Source of the DNA: Hyphomicrobiales bacterium
Lineage (GTDB): Bacteria; Pseudomonadota; Alphaproteobacteria; JAPOUT01
Length of the DNA: 64,000 nucleotides
NCBI GenBank assembly: GCA_026708545.1
Contig: JAPOUT010000091.1
Coordinates: 946-64,945 of the forward strand
Reading direction: 5' to 3'
Of the stretch, positions 1 to 17,839 are shown piece after piece (position 1 is the first letter of the stretch; every line of letters starts with the position of its first letter). The notes beneath the pieces were generated by a model. The model ran no database searches. It was given only the letters and a program-made list of their open reading frames with translations, and was not told the origin of the DNA. The translations under genes were made by a program, and so were the position numbers.

Positions 1-3000
1 TCCGCGGTTTCGGCAACGGTATCGTTCACAATTTCGATATCGAAGGTTTCGCTCGTTGCGGGGGCGGTGATGGTCCCGCTTCCGCTGCTGGTTGCGACTT
101 CGCCCGAGGGGGAAACCGACCAATTGAAAGAAATCGGCGAACCCGCGGCGGGCGCGGCGGTGGAGCGAACCGTCAGACTAACGGTGTCGCCCTCGCTCGC
201 AGTCGCGGCGTTGCCGCTGGCGGCAAAACCGAACGTTCCGCTCGGCGCGCTGTCGTTGTCGGTGATGGTGATAACGTGCGTCGTCGGCGAGACAAGCGCC
301 CAGCCGTCCGGCGGACCCGTAATGGTGAGTTCGATGGTCTCGCCGCTCTCCCCGAACACAGAGTCATCGATGATGGTGACGGGGATGTTCACCGTGCGTC
401 CGTTAACGGGAACGGTCACGCTCGAGCCGACGGTGTAATCGCTTCCGCGGGTCGCCCCGCCGCCCGTTGTGATGTTGAGCCTTATGCTGCTGTCGGGATT
501 CGGCGCATTAACTTGAACTTCGGCGTTATACGTTCCGTCTCCCTCGCCGACGGTACCGCTTGCAGATGCAAACTTGATCGTGTTGTCGTCGGCCGCAATG
601 GTGATGGTATGGGTCGTTCGATTCCCCAGCTTCCAGCCCGTCGGCAAACGGGAGCCGAGGGTGACGGTGACATCCTCGGCAGGTTCGGCGACATTGTCCT
701 GCCTGATAACGATGTCGAAGGTCTCGGAGTTGCTGCCGTTTTGAATGGTGACGGTTCCGTCGTCGGTTGCGATGTCGTCGTCACTGTTGTCGGCATCGTC
801 ATTGACCTCCCAGGTCAGATCCAGGTCGGCGGTGGCCGTGGTTGAGGAGCGAACCGTAAGCGTAACGGTTTCGCCTTCACTGCCGCCGGTGCGATTGACG
901 CTGCCGGAACTCGGCGCAAACTGCACCGTGTTGGGCTCGGGATCGTCAACCTCCAGCGTAAAGCTTGTGCCCGCAAGCTCCCAGCCGGCGCTCGAAGGGA
1001 AGCCGCCGCCTTCGCGGAAAGTAACCCCGTAACTGTTGTCGTCATAAGTACTGTCTTGCGGGAACGCCAGCCGCACCTTCGCGCTGCGGCCCGAGTTCGC
1101 CGGTATCGTGTAGGTTGCCGAGCCGGCGTTCCAGTTCCCCGGAACGTCCGGGGACGTGACGGTGATGCCCGAAGGAGCGGTAATGCGTATCGGCAGGGCA
1201 ACCGTGCTTGCATCGTTCAACGACAGGGTCAGGTCGTAATGTCCCGCCGATTCCAAAACAGTGGCCGTCGTCGCCGCAAAAGTGATGCGCCGGTCGTTCG
1301 CGGGAATGTTGATCGTGTGCGTGCGTGTGCCCAGCGACCAGCCCGTCGGCAGATTGGGACCGGTGAGAGTGACGACGACATTCTCGGGACCCTCGGGGTC
1401 GGGCGTAGGCGGGTCGGCAATCGTGAAAGAGAAAGTCGCCCTGCTGCTTCCGCTGTTGACAGTCACGGTTCCGCTGCCGGAGCCGTCAACATCCGAGGCT
1501 CCCGTGGTAACGCTCCAATTAAGGGGAAGCCTAGCGTTCGCGGTTGCAGTGGATGCCACCGCGAGGGTGACGCGCTGGCCCTCGCTTGCGGAAGTCGTAT
1601 TTGAACTCGCGAACCCGACGCTGCCCCTGGGCTCCTCGTTCTCGGGAATGGTGATGGTGTGCACCGTGCGCGTGCCGAAACCCCACCCGTTCGGGAACCC
1701 GTTGGGTGACGGGCGTTCCGAGAGCGTCAGAATGATGGTCTCGTCGCTTTCAGGCTGGTTGTCGACGCCCTGGCTGCGAACCCGGATATTAACGGTGCCT
1801 GTTCCTCCGGGAATGGTGAGGGTCCCGGCTCCGGAGGAATAAGACCCCGCGCCCGGAACGTCAATACTGTATTCGCCGCTGCCTGCGCTCCCGGAAATTC
1901 CAAGGCCGACCTGGATGTCGCCGGCAGCGTGGGGAAGGTTGACGTTAAGGGGGATGATAATTCCGCCGGTGTTGGTTTCTTCAAGCGTCGAACTGCCGCG
2001 CGCAAACTGGATGGTATTGTCGCTGGCATTGATGGAGAACTCGTTGTTGGGCGAAGGGATGCTCCATCCGTCCGGGAAGTTGACGCCCTCCTCGAGAATC
2101 AACCGGACGGTTTCGGCGGCTTCGGCAATCTCGTCGTTAACAATGTTGAAGTCAAAGGTCGCGCTGGTTTGCCCCGCCGGGATGGTGAAACTCCCCCCGG
2201 TCGGAGAGATGTCCCTGGATATGTTGGTGGTGCCGTCTCCGGCGGCCGCCCATCTGAAAGGAAGCCCGCCTGCGGGAGCCGCAACGCCGGTGATTTGAAC
2301 GGTTCGCGTGACAACACCGTCCGTCTCATCGTATTCGGAGGGATTGACGCCGCCGCCGGAGGCCGCAAAGCCGACGGTATTGTCGTTCGCGTTGATGGTC
2401 AGGGTGTGCGTTGTTGCACCGGGATCGAGCCGCCACGGAGACTGCGGGAAAGGACTGCCCCGTGCAATCGTGAATACGACTTCCTCGGCTCTTTCGCCGA
2501 TGGTGTCGGCGTTGACAGTAACCGCAACGGACGCCACCGATTGCGCTACGACTCCCTCATCCGTTCCCGCGGGCACGGTCACGGTTGTCGGGGATGTGAA
2601 GGTAATGTCGGAAGTTTGGCCGCTTGCACTCACGGAAATCGGAACGCCGCCGGCCGGAGCGGGGCGACCGAGCCGCAACAGCAGATGCGTTGTTACCGCT
2701 CCCGCGCCTTCGTCAACCCGGGAAGACGGCGACGCAAAGCCGATGGTGTAGTCGTCGTTGCGCGGAATGGTAATCCGCACGAGACCGTCCAAACGAGCGT
2801 AACGGGAGTTCGCGCCGGTGGTGGTTGCGGCAAGTTCAATGATTTCATCGGTCTCGGAGATGTCGTCGTTGGTGATGGTGATTGTGAGAGTCATGGAACT
2901 CGTGTATTGCGGCAGCACCATCTCGAGGCGTCCGCCCTCGCCGTTTGTCTGCGCTCCGACGGCCACGACCCCCTGTCCCTGCTCCCCTTGCCCCCGCACT

Positions 3001-4317
3001 CCTTGCGACGTTCCCGAAATTGTCGGCGGGGTGACCGTCGCCGCGCCGCTCAAAGCATAGTCGCCGGCATCCGCGCTCGAACGCGCCGTCGCCGCAAACA
3101 CGACCGTAACCTCCCGCTCCAGAGGTTTGTCAAAATCGAACCTCATGGTGAACGGGTCATCGCCCTCCGCGAGCGTTGCGATGGAAGTCTCAATCCGCGC
3201 GACCGCGGGAATAATATCGAAGCGCTCTTCGTAGAGAACGCGCTTCTCGCGCTCGACCAGGCGCCACAAGTCCGGCACCGCCACGCGTCCGCCGCCGCTG
3301 TCGCTGCCTTCGAATCCGGGCAACGAGAAGCGGAACGCCAAGCCTGCGTTCCAGCGCGAGCCCAGGGAGTCATCGGTGTTATGATGCTCATAGCCGCCTT
3401 GCAGGAAGACCCCCGGAAACACTCGGTATTCCCCGGTAAACTGGTGGGAGGTGTGCCAATCTCTTCTAGCCTGCTCGCGCTCTCCCTCAAAACGCCAAAC
3501 GCCGAGAGAGCCGTCGAGGCGGACTCTGTCCAGCGCCAATCCAAGACGGAAATCCGCGCCTTGCAGGGCCTGTTCTTCAAACCCCTCCCGGCCCTTACGC
3601 CAATCGCTCAGCGGATGGTAGTAATTCACATTGGCTTGCAAAACCCCGCTTTGCGCATCCACGCCAACGCCCAGACGACGGTGTCCGCGCCTGAAGTCGT
3701 AGTCGAAAAACAGCGAGCCTCCCACGGCGGTGTCTTTGTCAAGATGCGTGCGAAGGACAAGACCGAAGTTGGCATCAACGCGCTCGGCGCCCTCAAGCCC
3801 GTTCCAGATGACCACGCCGGGCTGCATAAAAAGAGCCGATCCGGTTCCGTCGCCGTATTCCTCGCCCCAAACAGGGAAAACGGCATCAATCTCTCCGTGA
3901 ACGCTTTCATCCAACACCCACGAAATACTCGAGTCCAGACGGAAGCGGTCCTCGAAGAGCGCAATGCCTCCGCTGCGAACGGCGTCTTCAATGGTATCGA
4001 CAAGCATGCGCGAAGCAGTGTTGCGCAACGATTGCCGCGCACATTCGGAGTAGTCGCGCCGGCCGGCATCATTGAGCGCGCTGGTGCTGCCTGTGCCGGT
4101 GCCAATGCCGTCGCCGGAGTTGTAACGATCGAGGGGAATGAAGCCCTGCGTGTCACCGGCATCATGACAGCCGAGAACGCCGCTCCACAGCCTTTCCAGC
4201 GTTTGCGAAGATTTAGAAAAAAGGGTCTCGTCCGCTTGCGACGACGCCGTCACCGCAAACAGAAGCGATATAACCGGAAACAAAAATGTTCTTATTGGAA
4301 CTCTCACACCAACCAAC
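1..4317 (-). CDS. Inverse autotransporter (type Ve, intimin/invasin-family N-terminal beta-barrel) with long Calx-beta-like repeat passenger. It is partial, because the 3' end lies beyond the window start. It has an apparent +1 frameshift in the signal-peptide region and may be a pseudogene.
   Basis: Manual translation of the minus strand from TTG 4317/GTG 4308 gives a signal-peptide-like N-terminus (VGVRVPIRTFLFPVISLL) that hits TAA at 4213-4215. The frame starting around 4253 reads FAVTASSQADETLF..SECARQSLRNTASRMLVDTIEDAVRSGGIALFEDRFRLDSS..FFDYDFRRGHRRLGVGVDAQSG..NYYHPLSDW.., which is collinear with the N-terminal beta-domain of the 7538..11590 ORF. Spot checks at ~1980-2040 and 61-179 show the same frame stays open. 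No stop-terminated ORF of 60 aa or more is listed in that frame anywhere in 1..4290, consistent with an open frame running to the window edge. The long + strand ORFs here (for example 1929..4442) are R/G-rich antisense artefacts. Confidence 0.6.
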
Positions 4318-4977
4318 TCTCATTACCAAATCAAAAATCAAACCGAAATCCCCAAAAAATCCGACTTTTCTTCACCTCGCCTGCATCCCCAAGATGCGGG
4401 GATAGTGGCAAATTTGACGAGTTTTGGCAAGAATTTTTTTAACAAACCTTGTTTTAACGGGCTGAACCTTGGTAACAACGGGTTTTTCGAGGCTTTCCGG
4501 GAAGGGAAAACAGCCGGAAACCCGAACCGAAACGTGGCGCTTGACCGGGGCGCCTGGTGAAGACACTCGATGAAGCCCTGTGCCTCAATGACTCCTTTTT
4601 GCGGAATTTTATCACCGCTTTGCTATGCCCGTCATGCACGGAAACGGAGCCCGACAAAGAAAACGAAGACGGCAAAGACGCCCCCACGGATACCCGCCGG
4701 ATGCATGGGTTGATTTGAATTGCCGAACGGGGTTGGACGAAAAACGAATATTGAGGGATAGCCCAAGATTACCAGATGGATAGCGAATTGGGAGAAGAGG
4801 GGCTGGAAGAACGCAAAGAAGAAACTGGTAGAGAATGCCGACCTATGGAAAAGGTTTCGGTGGGTATGTCGCCGGAATCGCTAGCTACGCAGGAACACTC
4901 CCGTAAAAGCAACCACCAAACTCAAGAAGGCAACATAATGGCCAGTCCAATCATTAACCTCGTGGTAATGGATGTGG

Positions 4978-5130: not shown

Positions 5131-5241
5131 TTTGGCCTCCAGCGATTCGAGTTGATGCTCCAGTTTCTCGAATCGGCGGTCTGAATTTTTATTGGTTCAT
5201 ATACCCCCTAGCCGAGCAGCAAATCTCTTACAAGGAAACGG

Positions 5242-5646
5242 TTAGGAGGCATTATCGTCATCTGTATTTATGTCACCCTTGAAATTGATTTTTGATCTTT
5301 TCATCAAAGAAGTCGTAAAATTCACAAACCAAAACATCTTCCAATACACGGAAAGAAAAACGAGATCGATAATAAGAAATGTAAAAAGAGCGAAAGCATG
5401 AAACCAATTTTCCATAAAGGAAGATCGAAAAAAGTAGATGTAGATGGCTTCAAGAACAATAGCAACCATGAAAAGCTTGCCTGAACATTTACTAAGCCGT
5501 TCTCTTTCTAAATCTACATCATTTCGTAAACTGTTAGCATAAATATCAACCTCTTTTTTACCAAAGAGGTTTTGTCCAAGTTCAATCCAAGCTTTTAAAT
5601 CTTCTGGATTTAATTGTTCGTTATCCGGACTCTCCGAATCTCGCAT
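5242..5646 (-). CDS. Small membrane protein with an acidic soluble N-terminus and two predicted TM helices. It is the candidate toxin partner of the upstream Panacea-domain gene.
   Basis: 134-aa ORF. Its ATG at 5646 overlaps the stop of the upstream gene (5621-5623) by 26 nt, which suggests translational coupling. The hydrophobic segments are FMVAIVLEAIYIYFF and WFHAFALFTFLIIDLVFLSVYWKMFWFV. It lies in the AT-rich islet. Confidence 0.5.
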   Translation of the reverse strand: MRDSESPDNEQLNPEDLKAWIELGQNLFGKKEVDIYANSLRNDVDLERERLSKCSGKLFMVAIVLEAIYIYFFRSSFMENWFHAFALFTFLIIDLVFLSVYWKMFWFVNFTTSLMKRSKINFKGDINTDDDNAS

Positions 5647-6070
5647 GATACTCGATTACAATATCCTCTTGTGATATTATTCTGCCTCTTTCTCCAGGCT
5701 CATAAGCTTTATACCATGCGCCTTCTTTCCAGTGTGAAATGTTAATCATATCGCCAGCGTCTAAATCATCCATTGCGTTATACATATTTTCCAAATATGT
5801 AAATTCTTTATCGCGGCTTTCTAAACCTTTTTGAAAAAAGAAGACAGAGCTTTCTATCGGATATTTTCCGAACTGCTTAACATGACGGTATAAAGACGGT
5901 AACACAGGCCCATATTCCCACGCTTGGAAATTTTCACCTATCAACTTCTTCTTTTCCCTCCCAGAATAGAACATGTGTGCGAAGTATAGAACTTTCTGCA
6001 ACCGCAAATTGGTTATAGTCCAACTTGATATTTCGCAGAGCGTTTTCCCCGCCACAAGTGAATCGATCAT
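5621..6070 (-). CDS. Panacea-domain (DUF4065, SocA/GepA-like) protein, a putative antitoxin
   Basis: 149 aa. The motif ITNLRLQKVLYFAHMF...FQAWEYGPVLPSLY matches the hallmark K/RLQKLLYFAQ..W.yGPV..lY core of DUF4065. A GAGGTG Shine-Dalgarno sits 6 nt before the ATG. It lies immediately upstream of, and overlaps, a small TM protein gene. Confidence 0.6.
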   Translation of the reverse strand: MIDSLVAGKTLCEISSWTITNLRLQKVLYFAHMFYSGREKKKLIGENFQAWEYGPVLPSLYRHVKQFGKYPIESSVFFFQKGLESRDKEFTYLENMYNAMDDLDAGDMINISHWKEGAWYKAYEPGERGRIISQEDIVIEYHARFGESG

Positions 6071-6152
6071 CTTTCACACCTCAATTATAGACAGACCGGA
6101 ATCCGTTCAATTATTTAGGACCCCTTTTGTTCCTGTATAAATACGATAGGGG

Positions 6153-6181
6153 ATTATATGCGAAAGTGCCATGTTAGGCAA
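6153..6181 (-). promoter_or_regulatory. Putative sigma70-type promoter for the Panacea/2-TM operon (-35 TTGCCT, 17-nt spacer, -10 TATAAT)
   Basis: Read on the minus strand: TTGCCT at 6181..6176, then 17 nt, then TATAAT at 6158..6153, about 80 nt upstream of ATG 6070. The -35 overlaps the tnpB stop codon. Confidence 0.3.
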
Positions 6182-7298
6182 CTCGCTTAAGATGGACAGG
6201 CTCCGCCTCAACAGGCTTCAACGCTTTGTCTAACGACTCGACCCCGCGAGCCAATATGTTCTTGGCGGCATTGGTATCCGCATGCGCCCGGTATCCGCAA
6301 GCACAGGCAAACCCGCGCTCTTGGCGTTTCCCTCTCGCTCCACACGCATTGCATGTCTGCGAGGTGTATGCGGGATTAACATTAATCACCCGCATTTTGT
6401 AACCCAATTTCTGTTCCAAACTCCCCCAGCACGATTCCAATATCCCTCTGGTAAGGTTTTTATGTCCCTTACGCGTCATCTTTTTCGTTTGCAACGTTTC
6501 TAAAACCACGGTGCCATAATCGTTGGCTATTGTCCTGCTTGCATGATGCGCCCAATTCAAACGGATATTCGCCATCTTGGCATAAGCCCTGCCCGCCCGA
6601 CTCTTGGATACCAAATACCGCTTTGAACCCTTTCTACGCCTCGCCATTTGCCGCTGATACCTTGTCCGTTTGCGAATCAACGAATCGACCTGTGGAAGTT
6701 CAATGATTCGATTATCCGACAAGGCGATATTTCCTACATTCCGGTCAACACCAACCAACTTGGTATTTTGATTTTGTTCGGTCTCTGTCTTGTAAACCAA
6801 ATACACATACCATTTGCCGTTCTCATGCTTTACACGTCCCGAAACGGCTTTGCAACCCCTATAAGGATTGTTTCCGCTCAATCCCATCCACCCAATTCTT
6901 TGGATGTATATGGCATCGGAATTCCTATTGACACGAAAAGTTTTATTAGTTGCCAATGCAAACGATAAGGTTGTGTTGTATCTTCCCCGAAACTTTGGCA
7001 ATCCCGAATCCTTATGCTTAAAAAACTTCTTATAGGCCGTTTCTATCGGCTTCAACGAGTCCCGCACGTTACCCGCTGAATATTGCAACAACCACGGGTT
7101 TTGATTGCGAAGCGTAGTAAACCATTTCCCAAGCGTATAAAAACGATAATCGCATTTCCCCTTCCATTCATACTCGTCCCTAAGTTTGGATACAGCCTGA
7201 TTCCAAACCCACCTACAAGCCTCTGCAGTGCCAAATAACATAGCGTTTTTAGCCTTCGTTTTCGGATGCAATCTAAATCTTACTACTCTGTGTTCCAT
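6174..7298 (-). CDS. tnpB: IS200/IS605-family transposase accessory protein TnpB (OrfB; RNA-guided RuvC-like nuclease)
   Basis: 374 aa with an OrfB_IS605-like N-terminus. It has the RuvC-like motif VGVDRNVGNIALSD, a C-terminal zinc finger CNACG..CACG, and HADTNAAKNI (RuvC-III). No adjacent tnpA (Y1 HUH) gene is visible. Local AT-rich composition. Confidence 0.85.
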   Translation of the reverse strand: MEHRVVRFRLHPKTKAKNAMLFGTAEACRWVWNQAVSKLRDEYEWKGKCDYRFYTLGKWFTTLRNQNPWLLQYSAGNVRDSLKPIETAYKKFFKHKDSGLPKFRGRYNTTLSFALATNKTFRVNRNSDAIYIQRIGWMGLSGNNPYRGCKAVSGRVKHENGKWYVYLVYKTETEQNQNTKLVGVDRNVGNIALSDNRIIELPQVDSLIRKRTRYQRQMARRRKGSKRYLVSKSRAGRAYAKMANIRLNWAHHASRTIANDYGTVVLETLQTKKMTRKGHKNLTRGILESCWGSLEQKLGYKMRVINVNPAYTSQTCNACGARGKRQERGFACACGYRAHADTNAAKNILARGVESLDKALKPVEAEPVHLKRVA

Positions 7299-7537
7299 AG
7301 TCCCTATTTAGGGGAAACTTGGCACTTTCATATATATCCCCATACGATACATTTATCTAAATCAAATGCAACAGCCCCAAATTCGGCAATTACCGGCGGG
7401 TTTTTTGTGTATGTGATTCGAATCAGGCTAGCCCGTATTCCATTCACCTTGTCGACTTCGCTCATACGACCACCCAAGAATGTCTCGTTGATCTCCGTAG
7501 TGCCGGTCAGTTCGGAGAGAATGTTCTTCAGGATTGC

Positions 7538-10500
7538 TCACTCAGTGACAATGTCGATGGCATGGGAAGCCTGCCCGCCAATCTCCCAGCCCGCCGAGAT
7601 GTTGTCGTCCTGGCCTGCGGGTTTGCTGATGGCGAGGGTGGCCTGTGTATTCCCGGTTGCCGCGCTGCCGTCGGAGGATATGACGGTGAGAGTGACTTCG
7701 GGGGCCCCCACATCAACGACAAGGCGGTTGTTGGCGGCGTCGTACGTGCCGTTGGCTACGGAGTCGATGGTAACATCGCCGGTGACATCAAGGTCGAGAT
7801 TGAAAGCGGACGAATGCGGAAGATCGACGAGGATTTTGACCTTGATGCCGTCGGCCGCGGTTGTGGCGGTATTCTCAAGGGACGAAGACGAATCTTCAAA
7901 CGCAATCGTGTTGTCGTTGGCGGCAATGTGGATGGTGAGTTGGTTTGCATTGGCATCAATCTCCCAGTCATCCGAGGGAAAACGCGTCGTGTGCGGCTCG
8001 ATGGTGATGGTGTGTTCTTCCCGAAGTTCGGGATGTTCGTCTCCCCGGGGGTCTATGCTGAGTAAAATGTTTCCGTTTGGATGGGCTTGTCCCGCGGCAA
8101 TCGAGAGCAACTTGGACGCGGAACCGAACGAGCCGTCGGCCGCATCGGCGAAGTTGATGGTGAAGTCGTTGCTGTTTTCATCGTCGCCGAATTTCAGCGC
8201 GATGGGTATAATTGCGGGAACGGGACGCGTAAACGGGGCGCCTTCGGGCGTGCGCAACCGCAGCACCGTGCTTGCGGCAACCCCGTCCTCGGTGACCTCG
8301 ATCGGCACCGACGATGCGAAGCCGATTACGTTTTTCGGCTCAACGGGGTCGCCGCCGGGATCACCGCCAGTGCCGTCGTCGGCATCGTCATCGACAATGA
8401 CGAGGGTGTGGGTTATCTGGCTGCCGAACTGCACGCCCGGCGGCAGCCTTGTCGATGTCAAGGTGAAAACGATCTCCCTGCTGCCTTCAACATCGGAGTT
8501 GTCGGCGACGTCAATGCCGAGATTCGAAGCCGCCGAACTCACGGCAAAACGATGCGGAGTCTCGATGCCCGGGCCGCTCGTGCCCCGAATCTTCGCGTCA
8601 CCCGTCGCACCGTGCGCCGTAATCATTACGTCAAACGTCGTACCTAAAATCCCGGTTACGGAAATCGGAATGTCGAACGAACTGCCCTCGGTCACGCGCG
8701 ATCCCGATCTCGCAAACGCAACCCTTCCCCGGTTCGGTGGTTCGTCGTCAACAATCGTGACCTCGAGGAAACTCGAAGAAGCTCTCGTAGTGCCGATCCT
8801 CCAGCCGGACGGAACGCCCGGATCGCCGGCCGCGCCGGACTCGCTGACTTCGAAAATAACTGTCTTGTCGCCGTCGGCATCGGGATTGTCCCGCGGCACA
8901 ATCGTAACCTCGATCTCCTGTGCGCCCTCTCCGCCGTGCGCGGGAATCTCCAGTATCCCGTCGTCGGACGAATACGTGCCGCCCGATGTCACCGAATACA
9001 TGTAATCCCCCTCCTCTCCCGCCGAGGGCTGAAGCACCGCGGTCGAGTCGTCCGTGGGCAGCAGGCGCAGCCGCACCGGTTCCTCAAACGGACTGTTCAC
9101 AACCAACTTCACCGTCTGCGGACCCTCATCCTCTTGAATTTCAAGACTCCTGGCGGGATTCCAAACAACGGTGTTTTCATTTGCCGCAATCTCAATGCGC
9201 ATCCGGTCGGGTTGCGTGTCCAGGGGAATTCTCAGTATCGACCAGCCCGTCGGCAGCGGACGGCGGGAACTTTCACGGATGTTGAGGAAGATTTCTTCGG
9301 CGAACTCGGCAACGCCGTCCCTGACGGCGGTGAAGGTAAAATTATACGAATCCGTGTTGGCGGGAATGACCACATCGCTCGGGAACTGAACCTCGTCCGG
9401 ATCGGCATCCGCCGGACCGCCGGGATCGAAGGAGGCCTCCAATGCCAGAGTTATCGGCACGGGCGAAGGATCAAGGGCGATTTCGATTTCGACGGGGACG
9501 CCTTCCTCGACATCCGTCTCAAGACGCGCCGGCTCCGGATCGAGCGGATCGAAGGCGCCGAAGGCGATGTTCTTCTCGCTCGCGGTAATGGTGACGGTCT
9601 GGCTTGAAGGCACGCCAAGCCGCGCAACATCCTCATACTCGGCGGGAAGCGTAATGCCGAGGATGAGTGTCTCGGGATTCTCGGGAGTGTCGTCGTTGTT
9701 GACATTGACGGTAATCGAAGCGCTCGTCTCGCCGGCGGGAATGGTCAGCGTGCAATTTGAAACATCCGCATCGCAGTCCAGCGGCGGGCTGGAAGGGTCG
9801 GCGGGATTTGGATATTGGAAAAACCAGTCGTTCGGCGCGCTGCCGAAGTCCGCCGTGCCTCCCGTGGTAAAACCGATTGTGATATCTTCCGGAAGCCCCT
9901 CTTCCCCGCCGATGCGGACCTCCATGGTCATGGGAGCGCCGCCTTCTTCTGGAACGGTGGCCGAGCCTTCGTAAGCCAGCGTGACGGGCGGCGCGAGATG
10001 CCGACCGATGGTGAACACCTGCGTTGCATCGCGCACGGCAAGAAGCCCGGCATGTTCGGGCGGAACAACGAAGGAAACCCGGATCGTTTCCGTGCCCTCG
10101 TAATCCCCCTCGTTGTGAACCATAACGCGCACCTCGACCCTTGTATCGCCCGCAGGAACGGTAACCGCGCAAGGCGCATTCTCCGAAGCCTCCGCGCACT
10201 CGGTCATGCCCGCATGATCCGGACGCGCCGTCTCATTGGCGGGAACAACCCGGTAACCCATCTGCCAGTCGTCGGAATCGGGATCGGTCCCGTAGTCCGC
10301 CGTCCCGCCGCCGACAAGATGCAGCACGATGTCCTCCTCAAACGCCTCGCTCAACACGGCCGTCATTTGCACCATGCTCCCCTCGCCGAGGTTCCTCTCG
10401 CCCTCGTAACGCAACGAGACTCCCGGCCCCCGCTCATATTCTTCATAGAGAATTCGCTTCTCGCGCTCAACGGCACGCCACAAATCCGGATCCGGAAGCT

Positions 10501-11545
10501 GCCAGCCGCCGGCGCCCGTCGCACCATCCAAATTCGGCAACGAGAACTCGAACGACATCCCCGCGCTCCAGCGCGGACCCAGCGACTCCTCGTCCTCGTG
10601 GTGCTCATACCTCCCCTCCACAAACACGCCCGGCAGCACGCGGAAACCGGCATCAAACTCATAACTCGGATGCCACTGTGTTTGCGAGCCGTCTTCGCCC
10701 TCGAAGCGCCAGTATCCTAGCGAACCGCCCAGGTGCAGACGGTCGCGCCTGTACGCCAAATGCACATCCAGTCCGCGCAACGTCCTTTCGAAATAAGGGA
10801 TGGCGTTATCCTCGCGGCCTTCCAACTGGTTGGTGAGAGGATGGTAATAGTTGAAGGCGCCGTGGAACATCCCGCTTTGCACATCTGCCCCGATGCCCAA
10901 GCGCGAATGTCCGCGCCTGAAGCCGTGGTCGTAAAAGATCGATCCCCCCGCCACCAAACCGCTCGCCAGGTTTGAGCGGTAAACAAGCCCCAGGTTTGCA
11001 TCGGTGCGCACCTCTTCACCCAGCCCCTGCCAAAACACCGCACCCGGCTGAAGGAACAGTGCATTCCCCTCGCCCTCCGGGCGCCCGCTTGACCATATCG
11101 GCAGCACAACATCCACTTCGCCCTGGACACTGCTGCCGAAAACCCAGTTAAGCGACGAATCAAGCCGGAAACCCTCTTCGAAGACGGCAAGACCTCCCTG
11201 ATGAAGGACATCCTCAATAGTGTCAACGATTATGCGCGAGCCCGTATTTCGCAACGCCTGTCTTCCGCATTCGGAATAGTTGCGCGACTCCTTCGCCGGG
11301 ACGGAGCCGCTTTCAAGCGCTTGTTCGACGGCGGCATCATCGTCCCCGCGCACGGCACAACGCAGAGCGCCGCTCCACACCTGCTTGAATGCCGCATTCG
11401 GGCGCGCAAACAGGGACTCGTCCGCATGCGAATCCGACGACGAAGACAGGCCCCCGAACGAAAGCGCCAATATCGCAAGCGCAGGCATTGCCACGGCGCG
11501 CACAAGGCTCCGGCGGAGAACCAGCAAAGAGACAATACTATCCAT
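7538..11545 (-). CDS. Inverse autotransporter (type Ve secretion; intimin/invasin-like N-terminal beta-barrel) with a ~950-aa passenger of Calx-beta-like repeats
   Basis: One uninterrupted ORF. The listed start 11590 is TTG, and the likely start is ATG 11545 (MDSIVSLLVLRRSLVRAVAMPALAILALSF, a signal peptide). Residues ~200-400 read FYDHGFRRGHSRLGIGADVQSG..NYYHPLTNQLEGRE..LGYWRFEGE..DLWRAVEREKRILYEEY. This resembles the intimin/invasin IAT beta-domain (FYDxxxxxxHxRxGxG...NGY..LSGW; ..DLVQRNNNIILEY). The passenger has repeated GGGTADYG / TGGTADFG / TVTIT motifs typical of Calx-beta-like folds. Confidence 0.75.
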   Translation of the reverse strand: MDSIVSLLVLRRSLVRAVAMPALAILALSFGGLSSSSDSHADESLFARPNAAFKQVWSGALRCAVRGDDDAAVEQALESGSVPAKESRNYSECGRQALRNTGSRIIVDTIEDVLHQGGLAVFEEGFRLDSSLNWVFGSSVQGEVDVVLPIWSSGRPEGEGNALFLQPGAVFWQGLGEEVRTDANLGLVYRSNLASGLVAGGSIFYDHGFRRGHSRLGIGADVQSGMFHGAFNYYHPLTNQLEGREDNAIPYFERTLRGLDVHLAYRRDRLHLGGSLGYWRFEGEDGSQTQWHPSYEFDAGFRVLPGVFVEGRYEHHEDEESLGPRWSAGMSFEFSLPNLDGATGAGGWQLPDPDLWRAVEREKRILYEEYERGPGVSLRYEGERNLGEGSMVQMTAVLSEAFEEDIVLHLVGGGTADYGTDPDSDDWQMGYRVVPANETARPDHAGMTECAEASENAPCAVTVPAGDTRVEVRVMVHNEGDYEGTETIRVSFVVPPEHAGLLAVRDATQVFTIGRHLAPPVTLAYEGSATVPEEGGAPMTMEVRIGGEEGLPEDITIGFTTGGTADFGSAPNDWFFQYPNPADPSSPPLDCDADVSNCTLTIPAGETSASITVNVNNDDTPENPETLILGITLPAEYEDVARLGVPSSQTVTITASEKNIAFGAFDPLDPEPARLETDVEEGVPVEIEIALDPSPVPITLALEASFDPGGPADADPDEVQFPSDVVIPANTDSYNFTFTAVRDGVAEFAEEIFLNIRESSRRPLPTGWSILRIPLDTQPDRMRIEIAANENTVVWNPARSLEIQEDEGPQTVKLVVNSPFEEPVRLRLLPTDDSTAVLQPSAGEEGDYMYSVTSGGTYSSDDGILEIPAHGGEGAQEIEVTIVPRDNPDADGDKTVIFEVSESGAAGDPGVPSGWRIGTTRASSSFLEVTIVDDEPPNRGRVAFARSGSRVTEGSSFDIPISVTGILGTTFDVMITAHGATGDAKIRGTSGPGIETPHRFAVSSAASNLGIDVADNSDVEGSREIVFTLTSTRLPPGVQFGSQITHTLVIVDDDADDGTGGDPGGDPVEPKNVIGFASSVPIEVTEDGVAASTVLRLRTPEGAPFTRPVPAIIPIALKFGDDENSNDFTINFADAADGSFGSASKLLSIAAGQAHPNGNILLSIDPRGDEHPELREEHTITIEPHTTRFPSDDWEIDANANQLTIHIAANDNTIAFEDSSSSLENTATTAADGIKVKILVDLPHSSAFNLDLDVTGDVTIDSVANGTYDAANNRLVVDVGAPEVTLTVISSDGSAATGNTQATLAISKPAGQDDNISAGWEIGGQASHAIDIVTE

Positions 11546-11646
11546 GAACCATCGCACCGATACAAAAAGGGCGGCTATATGCCTAAGCAAACAGAATCTC
11601 TAGAAACCCTACGCCATGCGATAGGTTTTACCCGAAATTGTGATTC

Positions 11647-11952
11647 TCATTTTAAAATTCCCAATTTATCCATCCCGTATATCAAACTTATCAACCAACA
11701 AGGAGCGACAACAATAAAGGACATAACTATTAGCCAATCAGGTACCGGCAGAAAATAATTCAAATATGGATACGACAACCTAACCGTATCTTCATACATC
11801 CGATATTTCTCATTTATCAATTCTAATAAAAAAGGCAATGATGAAAAGGCGGTTAATAACCAGGTTGCTTTATTGATTATTTTACGAAAAAATGTAATTG
11901 ACGAGTCTAATGCCGCCTTCAACAACAGCCCACCCTCCGAACGCGTTAGCAA
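11647..11952 (-). CDS. Hypothetical small membrane protein (101 aa, 2 predicted TM segments) in the AT-rich spacer
   Basis: ORF located in the AT-rich 630-bp region upstream of the inverse autotransporter gene. Codon usage is atypical and it may be spurious. Confidence 0.2.
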   Translation of the reverse strand: MLTRSEGGLLLKAALDSSITFFRKIINKATWLLTAFSSLPFLLELINEKYRMYEDTVRLSYPYLNYFLPVPDWLIVMSFIVVAPCWLISLIYGMDKLGILK

Positions 11953-12224
11953 CCAAAAAACATATCGTTTTTAACACTTTCCTTCTCCTTCTTGTCGGTT
12001 TCCACCACCTGCACAGGGGCGCGAATCACTCCATGGACTAGTATAGGAACCCTCACGCGCTTTGCAAGAAAAATCTTCTTCGTCATTTCTACCTAAAGTA
12101 TACAACTGCCCAAAAGACGAACGCAATGCGAAATTACAGATTTAACCGCTTTTAGCAAGGGTTTAGGCTTAAAATCATCCGAAGTTTCACCGGGAGCGGC
12201 ACACACAAAGAGTGCAAATAACCA

Positions 12225-13655
12225 CTAGAAATCGACGCGCATTCCAACATTTGCACGATATTCCCGCACCTCGTTTCCGCGCGAAAAACCGAAATCCGCA
12301 TTCACCGAATAGCCGTCCCACCACTCGTAGTCCATTCCGAAGCCGAACTCGACTATCGGCGACTCAATCACGCTGGTCAGTTCCGCGCCCGAAACCCCGG
12401 TAACCGTCTCCCCGTCAAGCGGAAACCGCAAGTCAAGTCCCGCACGGATGCCTCCCCGGACGTCGGTCTCGTCAATCCACTCGGTATCCGCAACAATGCC
12501 GAAACGGGCCGTGAGTGTCTCTCCGTCCACCACTACAACAGTCTTGTTGTCGGGAGCGGTGAAACCATCGAAGTCAACATCGCCCCAAATCAGTTGCGCC
12601 GAGGGAATTAAAGAGAGGCGTCCCGCACGCAACCGATAGCCCCACTCGCCGGCCGCTGAAAATGTTTCTGCTTCGTTATCGACGGCAATAACCTCCCCCG
12701 GGGAGGAAATGTCCGAGGTTATGGCGGCATACTGCGCGCGCGTGTCAATGTAGAAATTCTCGTCCACCCATGACACATTCAACCCGCCGGAGAACAGTTC
12801 CGACTCAATGCTCCCGTTGCCCGACGCCGCCGAAACATCCGCGTCCGACGAGCCCGCCGCAATGTTTGCGCCGAACACCAAACCTCCCGCAACGGGAGCG
12901 TCAACGCCGAAGCGCATGCGTGCATCCATGACCTCATAGCTCGCCCCGGTCGTTGAGACCTTCGCCTCCGCATCCCAAATCCCCACATCCGCCTTCCCCC
13001 AAAAACCAACGCCGTCTTCCCTGACCCAGGAGCGTCCGTTGCGCGACTGCCGCAGGGATTCCAGGGATGAAAGTGACGCCAGCACCGCCGGATAGGATTC
13101 AAAAATCGACGCGCGATGCGAGAAACCCGTGTTTGCGGCAATGCTTCTGTTCCCGTCGGCAGGTTCGAGCGTGAGGTTGGAAGCGTCCATGACGAATTCA
13201 CCCGCCTCGAAAGCGTCAGAGCGCGAGTTCCCCATGACGGTGTTGAAAGTGACTCCATTGCCGGAGGTTTTGGGTGCACCGCCCCTGCGCGTGTTGTTGA
13301 TACGCCCCTTTAGTTCCGCAGTGCTCCCGTTCGAAACCGCTTCCGCCGTGACGGCCATTGCACTCCCTTCGGAATGCTCCTGACCGTCGACTCCGAAATT
13401 GCCGTTTTGCGTGACCGTCAAGGTCCGGCCCAAGGCCGCGGTGATCATTATCGGGGAATCGTTGTAACCATCCTGCCGCCTGGAACAGACGTAGACTCCA
13501 TCCGAATTAATAGAGGTGCACGTGCCTGCGCTTGCGGGCAGGGACATCGAAAGCACCGCGCCGAGCGCAACCGCCGACGTGCACGCCAGAAACGTTACAA
13601 AAGCGGCAAGTCCACGTCTGATTTTACGCAACGACACCTTCTCGCAGTGGTTCAC
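12225..13655 (-). CDS. Classical autotransporter (type Va) with a short passenger and a C-terminal beta-barrel translocator domain
   Basis: The C-terminal ~270 aa has alternating beta-strand patterning and a terminal ...YRANVGMRVDF, an aromatic C-terminus typical of autotransporter beta-domains. The likely start is GTG 13655, preceded by GGAGGG, giving the signal peptide MVNHCEKVSLRKIRRGLAAFVTFLACTSAVALGAVLSMSLPASA. The listed ORF start 13769 is the maximal ORF. Mature N-terminus GTCTSINSDGVYVCS. Confidence 0.7.
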   Translation of the reverse strand: MNHCEKVSLRKIRRGLAAFVTFLACTSAVALGAVLSMSLPASAGTCTSINSDGVYVCSRRQDGYNDSPIMITAALGRTLTVTQNGNFGVDGQEHSEGSAMAVTAEAVSNGSTAELKGRINNTRRGGAPKTSGNGVTFNTVMGNSRSDAFEAGEFVMDASNLTLEPADGNRSIAANTGFSHRASIFESYPAVLASLSSLESLRQSRNGRSWVREDGVGFWGKADVGIWDAEAKVSTTGASYEVMDARMRFGVDAPVAGGLVFGANIAAGSSDADVSAASGNGSIESELFSGGLNVSWVDENFYIDTRAQYAAITSDISSPGEVIAVDNEAETFSAAGEWGYRLRAGRLSLIPSAQLIWGDVDFDGFTAPDNKTVVVVDGETLTARFGIVADTEWIDETDVRGGIRAGLDLRFPLDGETVTGVSGAELTSVIESPIVEFGFGMDYEWWDGYSVNADFGFSRGNEVREYRANVGMRVDF

Positions 13656-13871
13656 GAACTCCCTCCAGGTTATGAATCTCTCGGACGGTGCACAGGAGAT
13701 TTTTACACGGCTCAAGAAGATTTCCGAGCATGATTCATATGAAGGGAAACCTGCGCAGAAATCTGACAAGAGCAGAGTCTACCAAAATGACCACACGCTT
13801 GCAACTTCCTCCCTGGAAGGCTCTATGCCCCTTAAAAAAACAAACCTACAATAGCAACGCTGACACCGCCA

Positions 13872-14034
13872 ATGGCTATCAAAACCAAGGATATAGTCAA
13901 ATTCATAGCAACGATGTCGGTGGGAATCGTTGTAGTGTTAGGCGGGTTCATTGCGTTCTTGCAATTTTACAAATTAAGACACAAACGTATCCACCAACCA
14001 CCCATAACCGAAAGGAGACGTTAGCGCGAATACT
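13872..14034 (+). CDS. Hypothetical 54-aa single-TM peptide (very tentative)
   Basis: ATG 13872 to TAG 14034 reads [50 protein letters not shown]. There is no obvious Shine-Dalgarno. It lies in the intergenic region between the divergent autotransporter genes and its 3' end overlaps the rnhA-like remnant. Confidence 0.15.
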
Positions 14035-14215
14035 CCTCCATGGTCCTCTGTGCTAATTCAACAGCATCCTCCCTCTCATAACCGGCACTAACCACTTCTT
14101 TCGGTGTCCAGACCCATTCTATCTGATGCCTTCCCGTTGCCTCTTTAAGCCTTTTCCATAGGTCCGCATTCTCCACCGGCTTCTTCTTTGCGTTCTTCCA
14201 GCCCCCCTTCTCCAT
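14021..14215 (-). pseudogene. rnhA: Remnant of an RNase HI gene (C-terminal ~60 codons only)
   Basis: The 64-aa ORF reads [32 protein letters not shown]... This aligns with E. coli RNase HI [36 protein letters not shown]. A TGA lies 2 codons upstream of the M. No N-terminal catalytic part is found in any frame upstream. Confidence 0.4.
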
Positions 14216-14395
14216 CTCCTTTCACGGGTTTCGTGCAATAGCAAAAACACTTTTGGAGAAAGGAATTGAATTTAATACAAAGTAAATCGAAATGCAGTTA
14301 GCACGCATGATTTTATATTGACATGACATTGACTAGCATGGAAAATACCGTCAGCCTCTGAAGCTGAATCAGTCCTGTTTTCAAGGGAGGATAAA

Positions 14396-17300
14396 ATGAA
14401 CGTTCCCACGCAGAAATCACCCTTTACCCCCTTCCTTACCCGAGGCGGAAGGCTTAGAAAAACTTCAAAAGGCCTAATCTCCTTTGCACCGTTTTTAGCC
14501 GGTACATCGGTGCTTGCACTGAGCGCGTTGTTGGCAACGAGCTCACCGGTTGAAGCCGGGACTTGCAGAGAAGCCGGGAGAACGGGAGTTTGGACTTGTT
14601 CTAGTGCGGCAAATTCATCGAATGATAATACCCAATCCATTACGGGTCGGGAAAATCAAGATATAGATGTTACCGGAAACGCTACCTTTGGTTTGAATTC
14701 TTCCGGTAATACAGGATTCGGCATCATGGTCACGTCCGTAGCGACTACCGGCACAATTGATGTCAACTTGTCGAATAACAACGACATCACCTCCTATTAC
14801 GATGCCATCAACATCGACCAAGACGGCACGGGTGCGGTTACTGTCACAACAGACGGAGCTCTCGAGTCCACTGATTATAGCGGCATAGAAATCAACCAAA
14901 GCGGAAATGGTAATGTTACCGTTACGGCAGACGGAACTGTAACAGGAGGCGCTCATGCCGGCATCGATATCGTCACGGCTGCAGGAACAACGGGCGAGGT
15001 AAATGTCACCACAAACGCGGCCGTCTCGAGCGGCGCGGAGGGCATCAAACTCGATATTGACGGAAACAACGCGGTTACCATTATGGCGACCGGAACGGTT
15101 ACTTCCAGTGCCAGTGAAGAGGCCATTGAGATTGAACATTCCGGCACGGGAAATGTGGATATAACCACCTCCGACACCGTGACCGCTACCAATAACGATA
15201 AAGATGCCATCCTTGTTAATCTCTCGGGCACCGGCAATATCACCCTCACCGCCAATGGCAACGTCGTTGGCCGTTCAACTGAGAAAGCCGTCAACCTCTC
15301 AACGGCATCGGGTACTGCCACCATCATTTCGGAAACAGATGCAAGTTTTACAGGTGGTATTACCTTGTCCTCGTCCACCGACGCGATTACCATTGATCTG
15401 GACGGCAACGTCACAGCCAAGGGAAAAGCCGTTGAAGCAAGAAAAAACGGTGCTGAAGGCGAGACGTCAATAATCCTCGATGGCAGGATTACATCCGAGA
15501 ATGAAGAAGCCATCTTCGTTTACATGCTTGGCGGAACAAACGCGGAAGTCTCTTCAACAGGAGACATTATAGCGGGAAAGGATGGCATCTATATGTTCCA
15601 AGGCGGATCAGGAACAACCGAAGTCACCACAGGCGAAATTGATGCAGGTGGCAGAGGTGTCTACATCGTTGCATCACACCTGCGAGCAGGTGCAATAGAA
15701 GTCACCACAGGTGACATTGACAGCGTTAGAACCTGTATTTTCGTTGACCAAAACGGAGCCGGCGACGTTACCGTTACGGCAAACGCCAATATCGATTCGG
15801 ATATGAACGACGGAATCGTTGTCACCACTGTACAGCAAACCGGGAATATCACCGTCATCGCAAAAGGCAACATAGACGTTGAAGATAATGGTATTGCGGT
15901 TGGGCAACAAGGCACCGGCTCCATCGACATCACAGCAGAGGGAAATATCACATCCGATATTGACGAGAGTATCAGAGTCGGCACGCATGCAAGAACAACA
16001 GGCGATGTCACCATCACAACGAACGGCGATGTCACTGGCATGGGAGGGATTGTTATAGGCCATCAAGGCAGCGGCAAAGTCCTCCTTACTGTTGGCGGTG
16101 AGGTTACAAGCACCAGAGGAGCCGGAATCTCCCTCGCTGGTAGTAGTACGGCAGATGCCAAAATCGTTATGCGCGACGGCGCCAGGCTCAATAGTTCTAT
16201 CTACGCCAAAAGTTTCGCAGGAACCGTAACACTTGAATTCGCGGGTGAGTTCAGCGATTTTGATTTCGGCGATCAAAACGAGGATGATGAGAATAATATC
16301 CTCGGCGTTGATAATATTACCATCAGTGAAAGCGGTGCCCTTGAATTCGAAACGTCCAGCCCGGCTTCGAGCGTCCCAATCACGCTTTCCGGACGACTCG
16401 CGCTTGCCGGCACATCCTCCATCGCAGCCTTCGGCGCAATCACAGCAAGCGGTGACACCGGCAGCATCGAGATTGACGTGGACTTTTCCGGCGGAAGCGT
16501 AACCCTAAGCACCGCACGACTCACGGCAACATCCGTCACCGGCACCATCCCCGTCAACATTCGCGCCGTTGGCGGGGTTGCTCCAACACAACAAGTCACC
16601 ATCACGAACCTCATTGATGTTGCCGATAACGATGCCTTTACCGCAGGCAACGCTCTCAACGGAGGCTTCACTTTCAACCTCCAATATGACGCTCCCAACA
16701 CACGATGGAATCTCATTGCCGCTCCTGCTGCAACGGACGGCGGCGACGACGGTAATGGTGGAGACGACAATGGTGATGGTAATGGGAACGGGGGAGGCAA
16801 CGGCGGGGATGGAGACAACGGAGACGGTGACAATAACGGCGGGGGTGGCAATGATGACGGGGGCGACAACGGCAATGGCGGGGGTGGAGACAATGGAGAC
16901 GGCAACGGTAATGGTGGAGGTAACGACAATGACGACGGTAATGGTGATGGCGGAAGCGGTGGTCTTCCCGTGACTCCGGCAGGCCCGGCAACGGCCTTCG
17001 ATACCTTGCCTTCCGTGCTCTCGCATCTCGCACTTACGGAGTCCATGCATGAAAGACAGCAAGGCAGAAATTTCAAAGACTCCACAAAAGCATTCGCAAA
17101 AATCACGGCTGCAACCAGCGAAATCGAACCTTCCGCTGCCAGTTTCAAGACCAAGGAAGCAGGTGTCGAGTTCGGTGTTAGCACTCCCTTCACGCCCACC
17201 ATCATCCTTGACGCAAGCGTTGGATTCGCCACTGCCGGAACCGAAGCCTCCGTTGCCGACGGGCCTGCCGATATTAACTCCGAAGCCATCTCTGCGACCA

Positions 17301-17839
17301 CCGGCGCGACTTGGTCGCACAACGATTACTATATTGGCGGACAGGTCAAGTTTTCCCGCTTCGAAACCGAAATTGAGAACGCCGCAACAACCCTCGCATC
17401 CCCGGACGCTACCGCCTTGGGTGTCGGCGTGGAAGTGGGCCATGTTTTTGATCTCGGCGACACCCGCTTGATCCTTTCGGAGGGATTGTCGTGGAGCCGT
17501 GTTGACTTCGATGACTACACCTCCACCGACGACACTGCCGTCTCCCTGGACGACGGGGACGTGTTGTTCGGGCGGGTTGGCGCGGTTGCCGAGGCTGAAT
17601 GGGACGGCGTGGACATGCACGGGCGCTTGGATGTCCTTGTGCCTCTGGACGGCAAAGTGGTCACGAAAGTTGCGGGTGCGGAGATGGTATCGGAAATGGA
17701 GGACCCTGTCCTTGACGTCGGATTCGGGGGTTCTTATTCTTGGAACGATAACTTCACCGTTTCCGCCGACATCTCCACGCAACAAGGCTCCGAAGTCAAA
17801 GGCTACACGGCAAACATCGGAATCAGATACGCGTTCTAG
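14396..17839 (+). CDS. Classical autotransporter (type Va) with a ~800-aa beta-helix-like repeat passenger, a Gly/Asp-rich linker and a C-terminal beta-barrel
   Basis: A strong Shine-Dalgarno (AGGGAGGA) precedes ATG 14396. The extended signal peptide is MNVPTQKSPFTPFLTRGGRLRKTSKGLISFAPFLAGTSVLALSALLATSSPVEA. The mature N-terminus GTCREAGRTGVWTCSS is paralogous to the 12225..13655 product. The passenger has many G-T-G-N-V/I-T-(V/I)-T repeats. The C-terminus ...KGYTANIGIRYAF matches the autotransporter beta-domain terminal motif. Confidence 0.85.
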   Translation: MNVPTQKSPFTPFLTRGGRLRKTSKGLISFAPFLAGTSVLALSALLATSSPVEAGTCREAGRTGVWTCSSAANSSNDNTQSITGRENQDIDVTGNATFGLNSSGNTGFGIMVTSVATTGTIDVNLSNNNDITSYYDAINIDQDGTGAVTVTTDGALESTDYSGIEINQSGNGNVTVTADGTVTGGAHAGIDIVTAAGTTGEVNVTTNAAVSSGAEGIKLDIDGNNAVTIMATGTVTSSASEEAIEIEHSGTGNVDITTSDTVTATNNDKDAILVNLSGTGNITLTANGNVVGRSTEKAVNLSTASGTATIISETDASFTGGITLSSSTDAITIDLDGNVTAKGKAVEARKNGAEGETSIILDGRITSENEEAIFVYMLGGTNAEVSSTGDIIAGKDGIYMFQGGSGTTEVTTGEIDAGGRGVYIVASHLRAGAIEVTTGDIDSVRTCIFVDQNGAGDVTVTANANIDSDMNDGIVVTTVQQTGNITVIAKGNIDVEDNGIAVGQQGTGSIDITAEGNITSDIDESIRVGTHARTTGDVTITTNGDVTGMGGIVIGHQGSGKVLLTVGGEVTSTRGAGISLAGSSTADAKIVMRDGARLNSSIYAKSFAGTVTLEFAGEFSDFDFGDQNEDDENNILGVDNITISESGALEFETSSPASSVPITLSGRLALAGTSSIAAFGAITASGDTGSIEIDVDFSGGSVTLSTARLTATSVTGTIPVNIRAVGGVAPTQQVTITNLIDVADNDAFTAGNALNGGFTFNLQYDAPNTRWNLIAAPAATDGGDDGNGGDDNGDGNGNGGGNGGDGDNGDGDNNGGGGNDDGGDNGNGGGGDNGDGNGNGGGNDNDDGNGDGGSGGLPVTPAGPATAFDTLPSVLSHLALTESMHERQQGRNFKDSTKAFAKITAATSEIEPSAASFKTKEAGVEFGVSTPFTPTIILDASVGFATAGTEASVADGPADINSEAISATTGATWSHNDYYIGGQVKFSRFETEIENAATTLASPDATALGVGVEVGHVFDLGDTRLILSEGLSWSRVDFDDYTSTDDTAVSLDDGDVLFGRVGAVAEAEWDGVDMHGRLDVLVPLDGKVVTKVAGAEMVSEMEDPVLDVGFGGSYSWNDNFTVSADISTQQGSEVKGYTANIGIRYAF
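16735..16970 (+). repeat. Low-complexity GGN/GAY repeat encoding a Gly/Asp/Asn-rich linker (GGDDGNGGDDNGDGNGNGGGNGG...) inside the autotransporter passenger
   Basis: Direct reading of the sequence shows degenerate tandem ggcgac/ggcaat/ggtgga units. Confidence 0.6.

Follow-up and report, generated by a model that had tools for sequence, protein, structure and literature searches.

Inverse autotransporters with predicted Calx-beta passengers in a chromosomal group of genes for type V secreted surface proteins from an uncultured marine alphaproteobacterium

The inverse (type Ve) autotransporters that have been studied come almost all from enteric pathogens and carry passengers built of Big domains. 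The closest described systems, intimin, invasin and FdeC (PF11924), have a 12-strand barrel on the N-terminal side of the passenger, which is a chain of beta-sandwich domains of variable number. In the current analysis we describe a stretch of 64,000 nucleotides (the window) of contig JAPOUT010000091.1 from a Hyphomicrobiales bacterium, an uncultured marine alphaproteobacterium; positions 1-17839 of this stretch hold a cluster of chromosomal genes for surface proteins of the type V secretion class. Genes A and B of this cluster encode proteins that sequence profiles and structural models identify as inverse autotransporters, but not as intimins or invasins; genes C and D encode classical (type Va) autotransporters. 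An original prediction, made from the letters of the sequence, had placed two type Ve and two type Va autotransporters in this region. Open reading frames (ORFs) and Pfam profiles locate all four where they had been placed, and the IAT_beta, Autotransporter and Calx-beta domains are all matched in the locus. The four genes and the parts of A and B are as follows.

3-4307, minus strand: gene A, 5' part of an inverse (type Ve) autotransporter (open frame with IAT_beta and Calx-beta matches)
3189-4046, minus strand: barrel and linker of gene A (aa 92-377), ending in the DLWRLVEREKRVLYEE motif (row of the barrel alignment, profile match)
3-3203, minus strand: passenger of gene A, built of 9 or more Calx-beta-like repeats in tandem (aa 373-1439), of which the last is truncated at the window edge (repeat hidden Markov model, HMM)
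7538-11590, minus strand: gene B, complete inverse (type Ve) autotransporter (1350-aa ORF with IAT_beta match)
10403-11272, minus strand: barrel and linker of gene B (aa 107-396), predicted N-terminal helix, 12 beta-strands and linker (AlphaFold, Foldseek)
7541-10426, minus strand: passenger of gene B, 7 tandem Calx-beta-like domains (aa 389-1350; repeat HMM)
12225-13769, minus strand: gene C, short classical (type Va) autotransporter (514-aa ORF with Autotransporter and TIGR01414 matches)
14396-17839, plus strand: gene D, classical (type Va) autotransporter (1147 aa, Autotransporter match at the C-terminus)

The open frame of gene A lies on the minus strand from 4319 to 3 and runs off the start of the window. 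Its start is likely the GTG at 4307, as judged from the ortholog, and the visible part codes for at least 1,435 residues. This part scores 59.3 bits with the Pfam IAT_beta profile (cut-off 22.3) and 73-78 bits with Calx-beta (cut-off 27), the latter matching three stretches with 77.7 bits at best. A plus-strand reading of 1-4442 (837-aa ORF) was rejected as arginine-rich antisense noise, the true gene A being that of the minus strand. The ortholog of A in a 3.77-Mb contig (L039, 11765-20450) is called at 6,678 aa and is 99.5% identical over 1,435 aa, so that the window probably shows only about the first fifth of a giant gene; 21 repeats lie in the first 2,895 aa of this ortholog. Gene B has a longest ORF of 1350 aa, for which the gene callers agree on a start at M16 (position 11545), and scores 63.4 bits with IAT_beta (cut-off 22.3). 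Signal peptides are predicted by eye for both proteins: VRVPIRTFLFPVISLLFAVTASSQA, whose hydrophobic stretch ends in SSQA before DE, in A, and a hydrophobic stretch ending in SSSDSHA before DE in B. The two proteins are 32% identical over 1124 aa (E 2e-118) and can be regarded as paralogs, as had been proposed, and the motifs on which that proposal was built (FYDHGFRRGHSRLGIGADVQSG, NYYHPL, DLWRAVEREKRILYEE, GGGTADYG and TGGTADFG) are all present.

The N-terminal regions of A, B and 14 homologs were aligned to build a barrel profile. Its matches among solved structures include the barrels of invasin (4e1t, E 9e-14) and intimin (4e1s, E 3e-9). The conserved motif ending in VEREKRILYEE aligns with the C-terminus of the invasin construct, at the point where the linker exits the pore. 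An AlphaFold model of residues 107-396 of B consists of a helix, 12 strands and a linker, with a confidence (predicted local distance difference test, pLDDT) of 80-93 in the barrel core. The three best PDB matches of this model in Foldseek are 4e1s, 4e1t and 5g26, all of the intimin/invasin type (E about 1e-11, template modelling (TM) score 0.71-0.75), with the intimin barrel 4e1s at E 8.9e-12 and TM 0.75; unrelated 12-strand porins rank about five orders of magnitude behind. The profile, the model and the Foldseek ranking together establish the order of barrel and then passenger, and the predicted type Ve topology, with an N-terminal intimin/invasin-type barrel and a C-terminal passenger in A and B, agrees with the Pfam matches as well. 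As seen by profile and model, the barrels of A and B are 12-strand barrels homologous to the intimin/invasin beta-domain. Sequence identity to intimin and invasin is about 19-20%, and sequence comparison places the barrels in a subfamily of their own, separate from both.

The passengers were analysed with a repeat HMM that was seeded on the Pfam Calx-beta match of A and iterated on A, B and their homologs. It covers the passengers of A and B end to end (E 1e-8 to 3e-34 for the stretch in A). A profile made from an alignment of 50 repeat sequences finds the Calx-beta domain of NCX1 as its best solved relative (3us9, E 1.8e-14), followed by CALX. The AlphaFold model of residues 535-672 of B (pLDDT 90.3) was compared with the PDB by Foldseek; the top 24 matches are all Calx-beta domains (NCX1 CBD1/CBD2, CALX, integrin beta4; TM up to 0.78), and no Big domain appears near the top of this ranking. 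Pfam gives no match to Big_1, Big_2, Intimin_C, Invasin_D3 or LysM in A or B even at E <= 1. The choice of Calx-beta rather than Big_1/Big_2 in the original prediction is thus borne out by profile and structure comparison alike, and the passengers of A and B are, on the evidence of profile and model, made only of tandem Calx-beta domains.

Most of the repeats retain in the alignment the acidic residues with which NCX1 CBD1 binds Ca2+, namely an early Glu, the DDxxxE..E motif and a terminal D/N-D; repeats A1, A3, A7, A8, B2, B4, B5 and B6 are examples. Ca2+ binding by the repeats is therefore plausible. An insertion with a conserved cysteine pair, e.g. LDCDADVSNCTLTI, is found in the two repeats of B that lie nearest the membrane (aa ~465-478 and ~604-613; ~9750-10200 in the window) and in the equivalent repeats of many homologs. 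This insertion is the least confident region of the B repeat model, and it may form a disulfide-closed loop.

The comparison with the intimin/invasin/FdeC group reveals a similar barrel in sequence and fold, a similar position of the linker motif and a similar passenger plan of chained beta-sandwiches. A and B differ from intimin and invasin in that the passenger is of Calx-beta and not of Big_1/Big_2 type, and in that Pfam finds neither a C-type lectin domain nor an Invasin_D3 tip nor LysM; the family also reaches a far higher copy number (34 in one genome, see below) and sizes of up to about 7,000 aa. A different class of long adhesins has to be considered for the stalk. RTX (repeats-in-toxin) adhesins such as LapA and SiiE are exported by type I secretion. 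LapA and SiiE, which belong to the RTX adhesins, and BapP are Ca2+-dependent repeat adhesins of marine and environmental bacteria whose stalks are Calx-beta or cadherin-like; like A and B they have long tandem arrays of beta-sandwich repeats that carry acidic Ca2+ sites, and in both cases the stalk is presumed to be stiffened by Ca2+ (PMC12153261). In contrast to LapA and SiiE, A and B are predicted to be anchored and exported by their own N-terminal inverse-autotransporter barrel. No RTX/HemolysinCabind or type I secretion family is found among the Pfam matches of A and B, adjacent type I secretion genes not having been looked for. An RTX or type I secreted adhesin has accordingly been rejected, as there is no RTX match, B ends in a Calx-beta-like repeat and an inverse-autotransporter barrel is found instead. 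The closest relatives of the repeat unit itself are NCX1 CBD1/CBD2, CALX and integrin beta4, with which it shares the pattern E ... DDxxxE..E ... DD. In those eukaryotic membrane proteins one or two such domains serve as cytoplasmic regulatory domains, whereas here 7 to more than 50 copies form a predicted extracellular bacterial stalk.

Genes C and D resemble the classical autotransporters (PF03797) in having an N-terminal signal peptide, which is in a long signal peptide region in both, a C-terminal barrel and a terminal phenylalanine. Gene C, a 514-aa ORF called as 476 aa from 13655, scores 82.8 bits with Autotransporter and 84.5 bits with TIGR01414; its barrel is encoded at 12228-12920 and the protein ends in RVDF. 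The barrel of D is encoded at 17129-17836 and the protein ends in IRYAF. Full-length D gives no Pfam match, probably because of a G/D/N-rich stretch, and its last 299 aa scanned alone score 80.6 bits with Autotransporter. These scores and the ends of both proteins (VDF and YAF) agree with the C-terminal barrels ending in F that had been noted for C and D, and the proposed paralogy of the two is upheld by their barrels, which are 32% identical (E 2e-45). C and D differ from described classical autotransporters in their passengers, which match no Pfam family or solved structure in Pfam and PDB sequence searches. The passenger of D has a repeat period of 24-28 aa (G-x-V-x-V-T...).

Between the passenger and the barrel of D lies an unusual low-complexity linker of about 76 residues rich in G, D and N (aa 781-856, 16736-16963). 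It is encoded by imperfect tandem repeats of 36 and 75 nt (16796-16953) and may be variable in length. The tandem-repeat finder reports the repeats of this linker alone; repeats in promoters, as a sign of phase variation, are absent from its output.

The comparison of strains shows how the locus varies. Gene B is intact in L002, L003 and L039-L042, the same intact ORFs being found in six independent assemblies. The 3.77-Mb contig (L039), which is the ENA contig ERZ21788730:contig_4 and whose GlnA is exactly matched by that of the window, is 99.3-99.6% identical to the window over about 31 kb with conserved gene order. Strain L040 is 99.9% identical to the window up to position 4767, where the match ends. 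Its slot for A (10727-18190) is occupied by another member of the family, of 2,487 aa with 16 repeats and 31% identity, followed by an Mrr-like gene. Short-read assemblies end inside gene A. Between the window and the 3.77-Mb strain, B differs at about 10 positions per kb, as against 3.9 for C, 1.7 for D and 2.3-3.3 for the flanking core genes. The proposal that this is a diversification locus gains support from the polymorphism among strains (presence or absence of a TnpB element and replacement in the A slot) and from the expansion of the family. As seen in the comparison of strains and genomes, the family diversifies by change in the number of repeats, by replacement with paralogs and by duplication.

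A search with B retrieved 72 relatives, most of which have both PF11924 and PF03160 recorded; where a name is given, it reads 'inverse autotransporter beta domain-containing protein [Hyphomicrobiales bacterium]'. Among 5.8 billion proteins that were searched, every named match to the subfamily comes from a 'Hyphomicrobiales' metagenome-assembled genome (MAG), and the barrel subfamily has so far been seen only in uncultured 'Hyphomicrobiales'/Parvibaculaceae genomes. A scan of the GTDB species set with two patterns specific to this subfamily, and thus silent on other subfamilies of inverse autotransporters, found one matching genome, the Parvibaculaceae MAG OY734805.1; that only one genome matched is partly due to the specificity of both patterns. 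This genome of 2,838,304 bp encodes the family at 34 separate loci. Its proteins range from 554 aa to more than 3,700 aa with 2 to more than 30 repeats each, and together comprise at least 60,469 aa, or at least 6.4% of the genome, with at least 364 Calx-beta-like repeats covering the passengers; 8 of the proteins extend past the 10 kb examined. At one of the loci (L028, 19044-39874) two homologs of C and D lie no more than 10 kb away from a 599-aa inverse autotransporter, so that the pairing of type Ve with type Va recurs in a relative.

In an exhaustive profile search of 1.84 billion representative proteins, 1,871 matches reach E <= 1e-3; of these, 554 lie at E <= 1e-10 and 103 at E <= 1e-30. 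Members of the close subfamily carry 2-57 repeats and are up to 7,165 aa long. A search of the large protein set with the barrel profile yielded mostly short fragments of the same lineage and reached no distant relatives. More distant barrels that also carry Calx-beta are encoded in MAGs of other Alphaproteobacteria and of Gammaproteobacteria. In P0192, a distant inverse autotransporter of 1,733 aa, the barrel is flanked on either side by cytochrome c domains, and the protein also has LapA/Calx-beta-like repeats, an unusual arrangement. The family proteins have already been deposited in public databases, where both Pfam domains are noted for them under generic labels. In the searchable literature no paper was found that describes the Calx-beta inverse-autotransporter architecture, the single paper in which the two terms co-occur not linking them, and neither the 2016 survey of inverse autotransporters nor the 2021 survey of fibrillar adhesins mentions Calx-beta. 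The suggestion of an uncommon passenger class therefore holds as far as type V surveys and the literature are concerned; it does not hold for the sequence databases, in which such passengers are not rare.

The relatives of the source organism belong to Parvibaculaceae / GTDB f__RS24, and the IleRS and MutL encoded in the window are identical to NCBI proteins of a 'Hyphomicrobiales bacterium' MAG. The island is present on metagenome scaffolds that include ROBB21-1_SAMN13943203 and NCBI JAPOUY010000165.1. Parvibaculales has been described as the only lineage that dominates in the sponge Cliona orientalis (Robbins et al. 2021, PMC8163846), from which a closed Parvibaculaceae (f__RS24) genome was later obtained (PMC12639293). 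The name of the scaffold and these relatives suggest that the source bacterium is probably a sponge associate.

Established type V biology provides a possible path for these proteins to the surface. Sec would carry each protein across the inner membrane, and the beta-barrel assembly machinery and the translocation and assembly module (BAM/TAM) would insert the barrel into the outer membrane; intimin is known to be BamA-dependent, and TAM stimulates intimin and FdeC (PMC4943183). The passenger would thread through its own barrel as a hairpin and fold domain by domain outside the cell. As most repeats keep the acidic residues, Ca2+ in seawater would stiffen the repeat chain into a rod, as in other Ca2+-dependent repeat adhesins. 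At about 4-5 nm per domain, which is our own estimate, the rod of B would measure a few tens of nm and that of the full-length A ortholog perhaps more than 200 nm. The likely role would be Ca2+-dependent attachment to the host matrix, to host cells or to other bacteria. The analogy with FdeC, intimin and invasin on the one hand and with BapP and LapA on the other suggests that A and B probably act as adhesive, Ca2+-stiffened fibrils. We consider it likely that the locus as a whole is a type V cluster in which Calx-beta inverse autotransporters serve as Ca2+-dependent adhesins of a diversifying family.

A number of points count against this interpretation. The Pfam Calx-beta score of B is 23-24 bits, under the curated cut-off of 27, and the acidic motif is partly lost in repeats A5, A6, B1, B3 and B7. 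The barrel model is of moderate confidence (mean pLDDT 72.9), with the linker low. After assignment of the repeats by the repeat HMM, no distinct ligand-binding tip domain is left in the passenger of B or in the visible part of that of A. The passenger of D is taken to be a beta-helix solely from its periodicity, and the sponge origin is taken from the scaffold name and the relatives and not from sample metadata. In B, 40 codons are changed, 28 of them synonymously and 12 non-synonymously; positive selection on B has been rejected for this reason, as the surplus of strain differences is mostly synonymous, and the differences look more like exchange between alleles or paralogs.

The fibrils might join bacteria to one another instead of to a host, in Ca2+-dependent self-aggregation or biofilm formation among symbiont cells. 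Calx-beta repeat proteins such as BapP are Ca2+-dependent biofilm adhesins (PMC12153261), the inverse autotransporter FdeC promotes interaction between bacteria (PMC4943183), and the repeat HMM leaves no host-specific tip domain; we nevertheless regard this possibility as unlikely, since 34 paralogs as divergent as these in a genome would accord better with many different ligands than with one self-interaction. A more specific engagement of the host can also be envisaged. The Aggregation Factors of demosponges contain 2-15 Calx-beta domains and require Ca2+ (PMC5400394, PMC11670116), and the Calx-beta arrays could bind or imitate them, so that the bacterium docks or passes as 'self' and not as food. 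The huge expansion of the family in a lineage related to the dominant sponge symbiont would fit such a role, as would the origin of every named subfamily match among the 5.8 billion proteins. Calx-beta repeats are, however, common stalk modules in free-living marine bacteria (PMC12153261), and the distant Calx-beta inverse autotransporters of other Alpha- and Gammaproteobacteria come from MAGs whose habitat is not given. We find it rather doubtful that host engagement or mimicry is the role of the arrays. The same doubt attaches to the fuller proposal that this lineage-restricted, pure-Calx-beta family (2 to about 57 domains, dozens of paralogs) forms the interface between Parvibaculales and sponge by way of the Aggregation Factor, with strain replacement as host-specific matching.

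The extreme copy number and length of the family, which takes up at least 6.4% of a 2.84-Mb genome, and the replacement in the A slot between strains, which resembles antigenic variation, might be expected of rods that are mainly a variable surface layer against phagocytosis, grazing or phage adsorption and not adhesins. Such a protective coat appears improbable, as all the characterised inverse autotransporters with long passengers are adhesins or invasins (PMC4943183) and no phase-variation signal such as simple repeats in promoters was seen. It is finally conceivable that repetitive DNA gave rise to false or dead ORFs by decay or misassembly. The window edge truncates A, short-read assemblies are interrupted within this gene, and the remnant of a third inverse autotransporter exists in the window. 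B, C and D are, on the other hand, intact and nearly identical in six assemblies including the 3.77-Mb contig, the differences in B are mostly synonymous and the domain models are confident, which makes decay or artefact very hard to believe.

The spacers between the genes and the flank of the cluster contain the following features.

4791-4857 (within 4781-4870) and 14147-14214: two copies of a 64-67-bp repeat, upstream of A and of D
5242-5646, minus strand: 134-aa hydrophobic-looking ORF downstream of SocA (no Pfam match)
5621-6070, minus strand: SocA_Panacea gene, 149 aa (PF13274 recorded for the exact protein)
6149-7343, minus strand: TnpB-only mobile element of 1,195 bp (tnpB at 6174-7298, 374 aa; NF040570 TnpB, 205.9 bits)
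18349-18882, plus strand: DUF805 gene of the conserved flank (Pfam)
18921-19070, minus strand: remnant of a third inverse autotransporter, about 50 N-terminal codons (72-80% identity)
19659-19973, plus strand: rpmB of the conserved flank (Pfam)
19961-21370, minus strand: glnA of the conserved flank (Pfam)

The spacers had been described as AT-rich and as carrying insertion sequences (IS) and gene remnants. Their composition agrees with this, with 39-48% GC as against about 60-62% in A and B. The mobile element is found in the A-B spacer, and no IS is present in the B-C and C-D spacers. As to gene remnants, the A-B spacer contains an intact SocA/Panacea gene, and the sole clear remnant lies at 18921-19070, beyond positions 1-17839. 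This remnant is 72-80% identical to the N-termini of P0041 and P0055, which are short members of the family, and the rest of the gene is gone. A tblastn search with the barrels found no further full barrel copy in the 64-kb window, and Rfam found no known RNA in 1-22000.

Inverted repeats together with a target duplication are not known to be the usual ends of IS200/IS605 elements. The TnpB element has 29-nt terminal inverted repeats at 6147-6175 and 7316-7344 and a target duplication of about 8 bp (ATACGATA), which suggests that tnpB travels as cargo of a DDE-type transposase provided in trans. The element occurs in the window, L002, L003, L040, L041 and L042, and is absent from the 99.3-99.4% identical L039 (the 3.77-Mb contig), in which the empty site is seen. 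The intact SocA_Panacea gene overlaps the 134-aa ORF by 26 bp, and its exact protein is indexed on at least 23 contigs; by sequence, the two genes may form a Panacea-type toxin-antitoxin pair between A and B.

The two copies of the 64-67-bp repeat are 91-92% identical. One precedes A by 471 bp and the other precedes D by 182 bp, and each has the same orientation with respect to its gene. The copy near A adjoins position 4767, where strain L040 ceases to match the window. This repeat may be a regulatory element common to both genes or a site of recombination; among the examined loci of the Parvibaculaceae genome OY734805.1 none was found to contain it.

The order of the flanking genes DUF805, rpmB and glnA is identical in the 3.77-Mb contig, and the locus stands beside rpmB-glnA in all six of the assemblies that carry it. 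This conserved place indicates that the locus is not a freely mobile island.

For type V secretion, these observations suggest that the same export machine carries a different, predicted Ca2+-dependent stalk, and passengers of several thousand residues bear on the length of chain that a 12-strand barrel can export. For genome annotation, the genes of the family carry no label other than 'inverse autotransporter beta domain-containing protein', and in short-read assemblies they are broken or shortened. It is an open question how sponges distinguish their resident bacteria from food. A relative of the source bacterium devotes at least 6% of its genome to a surface family that shares its domain type with a cell-adhesion factor of the host, and these proteins are therefore suggested as concrete, testable candidate molecules for symbiosis.

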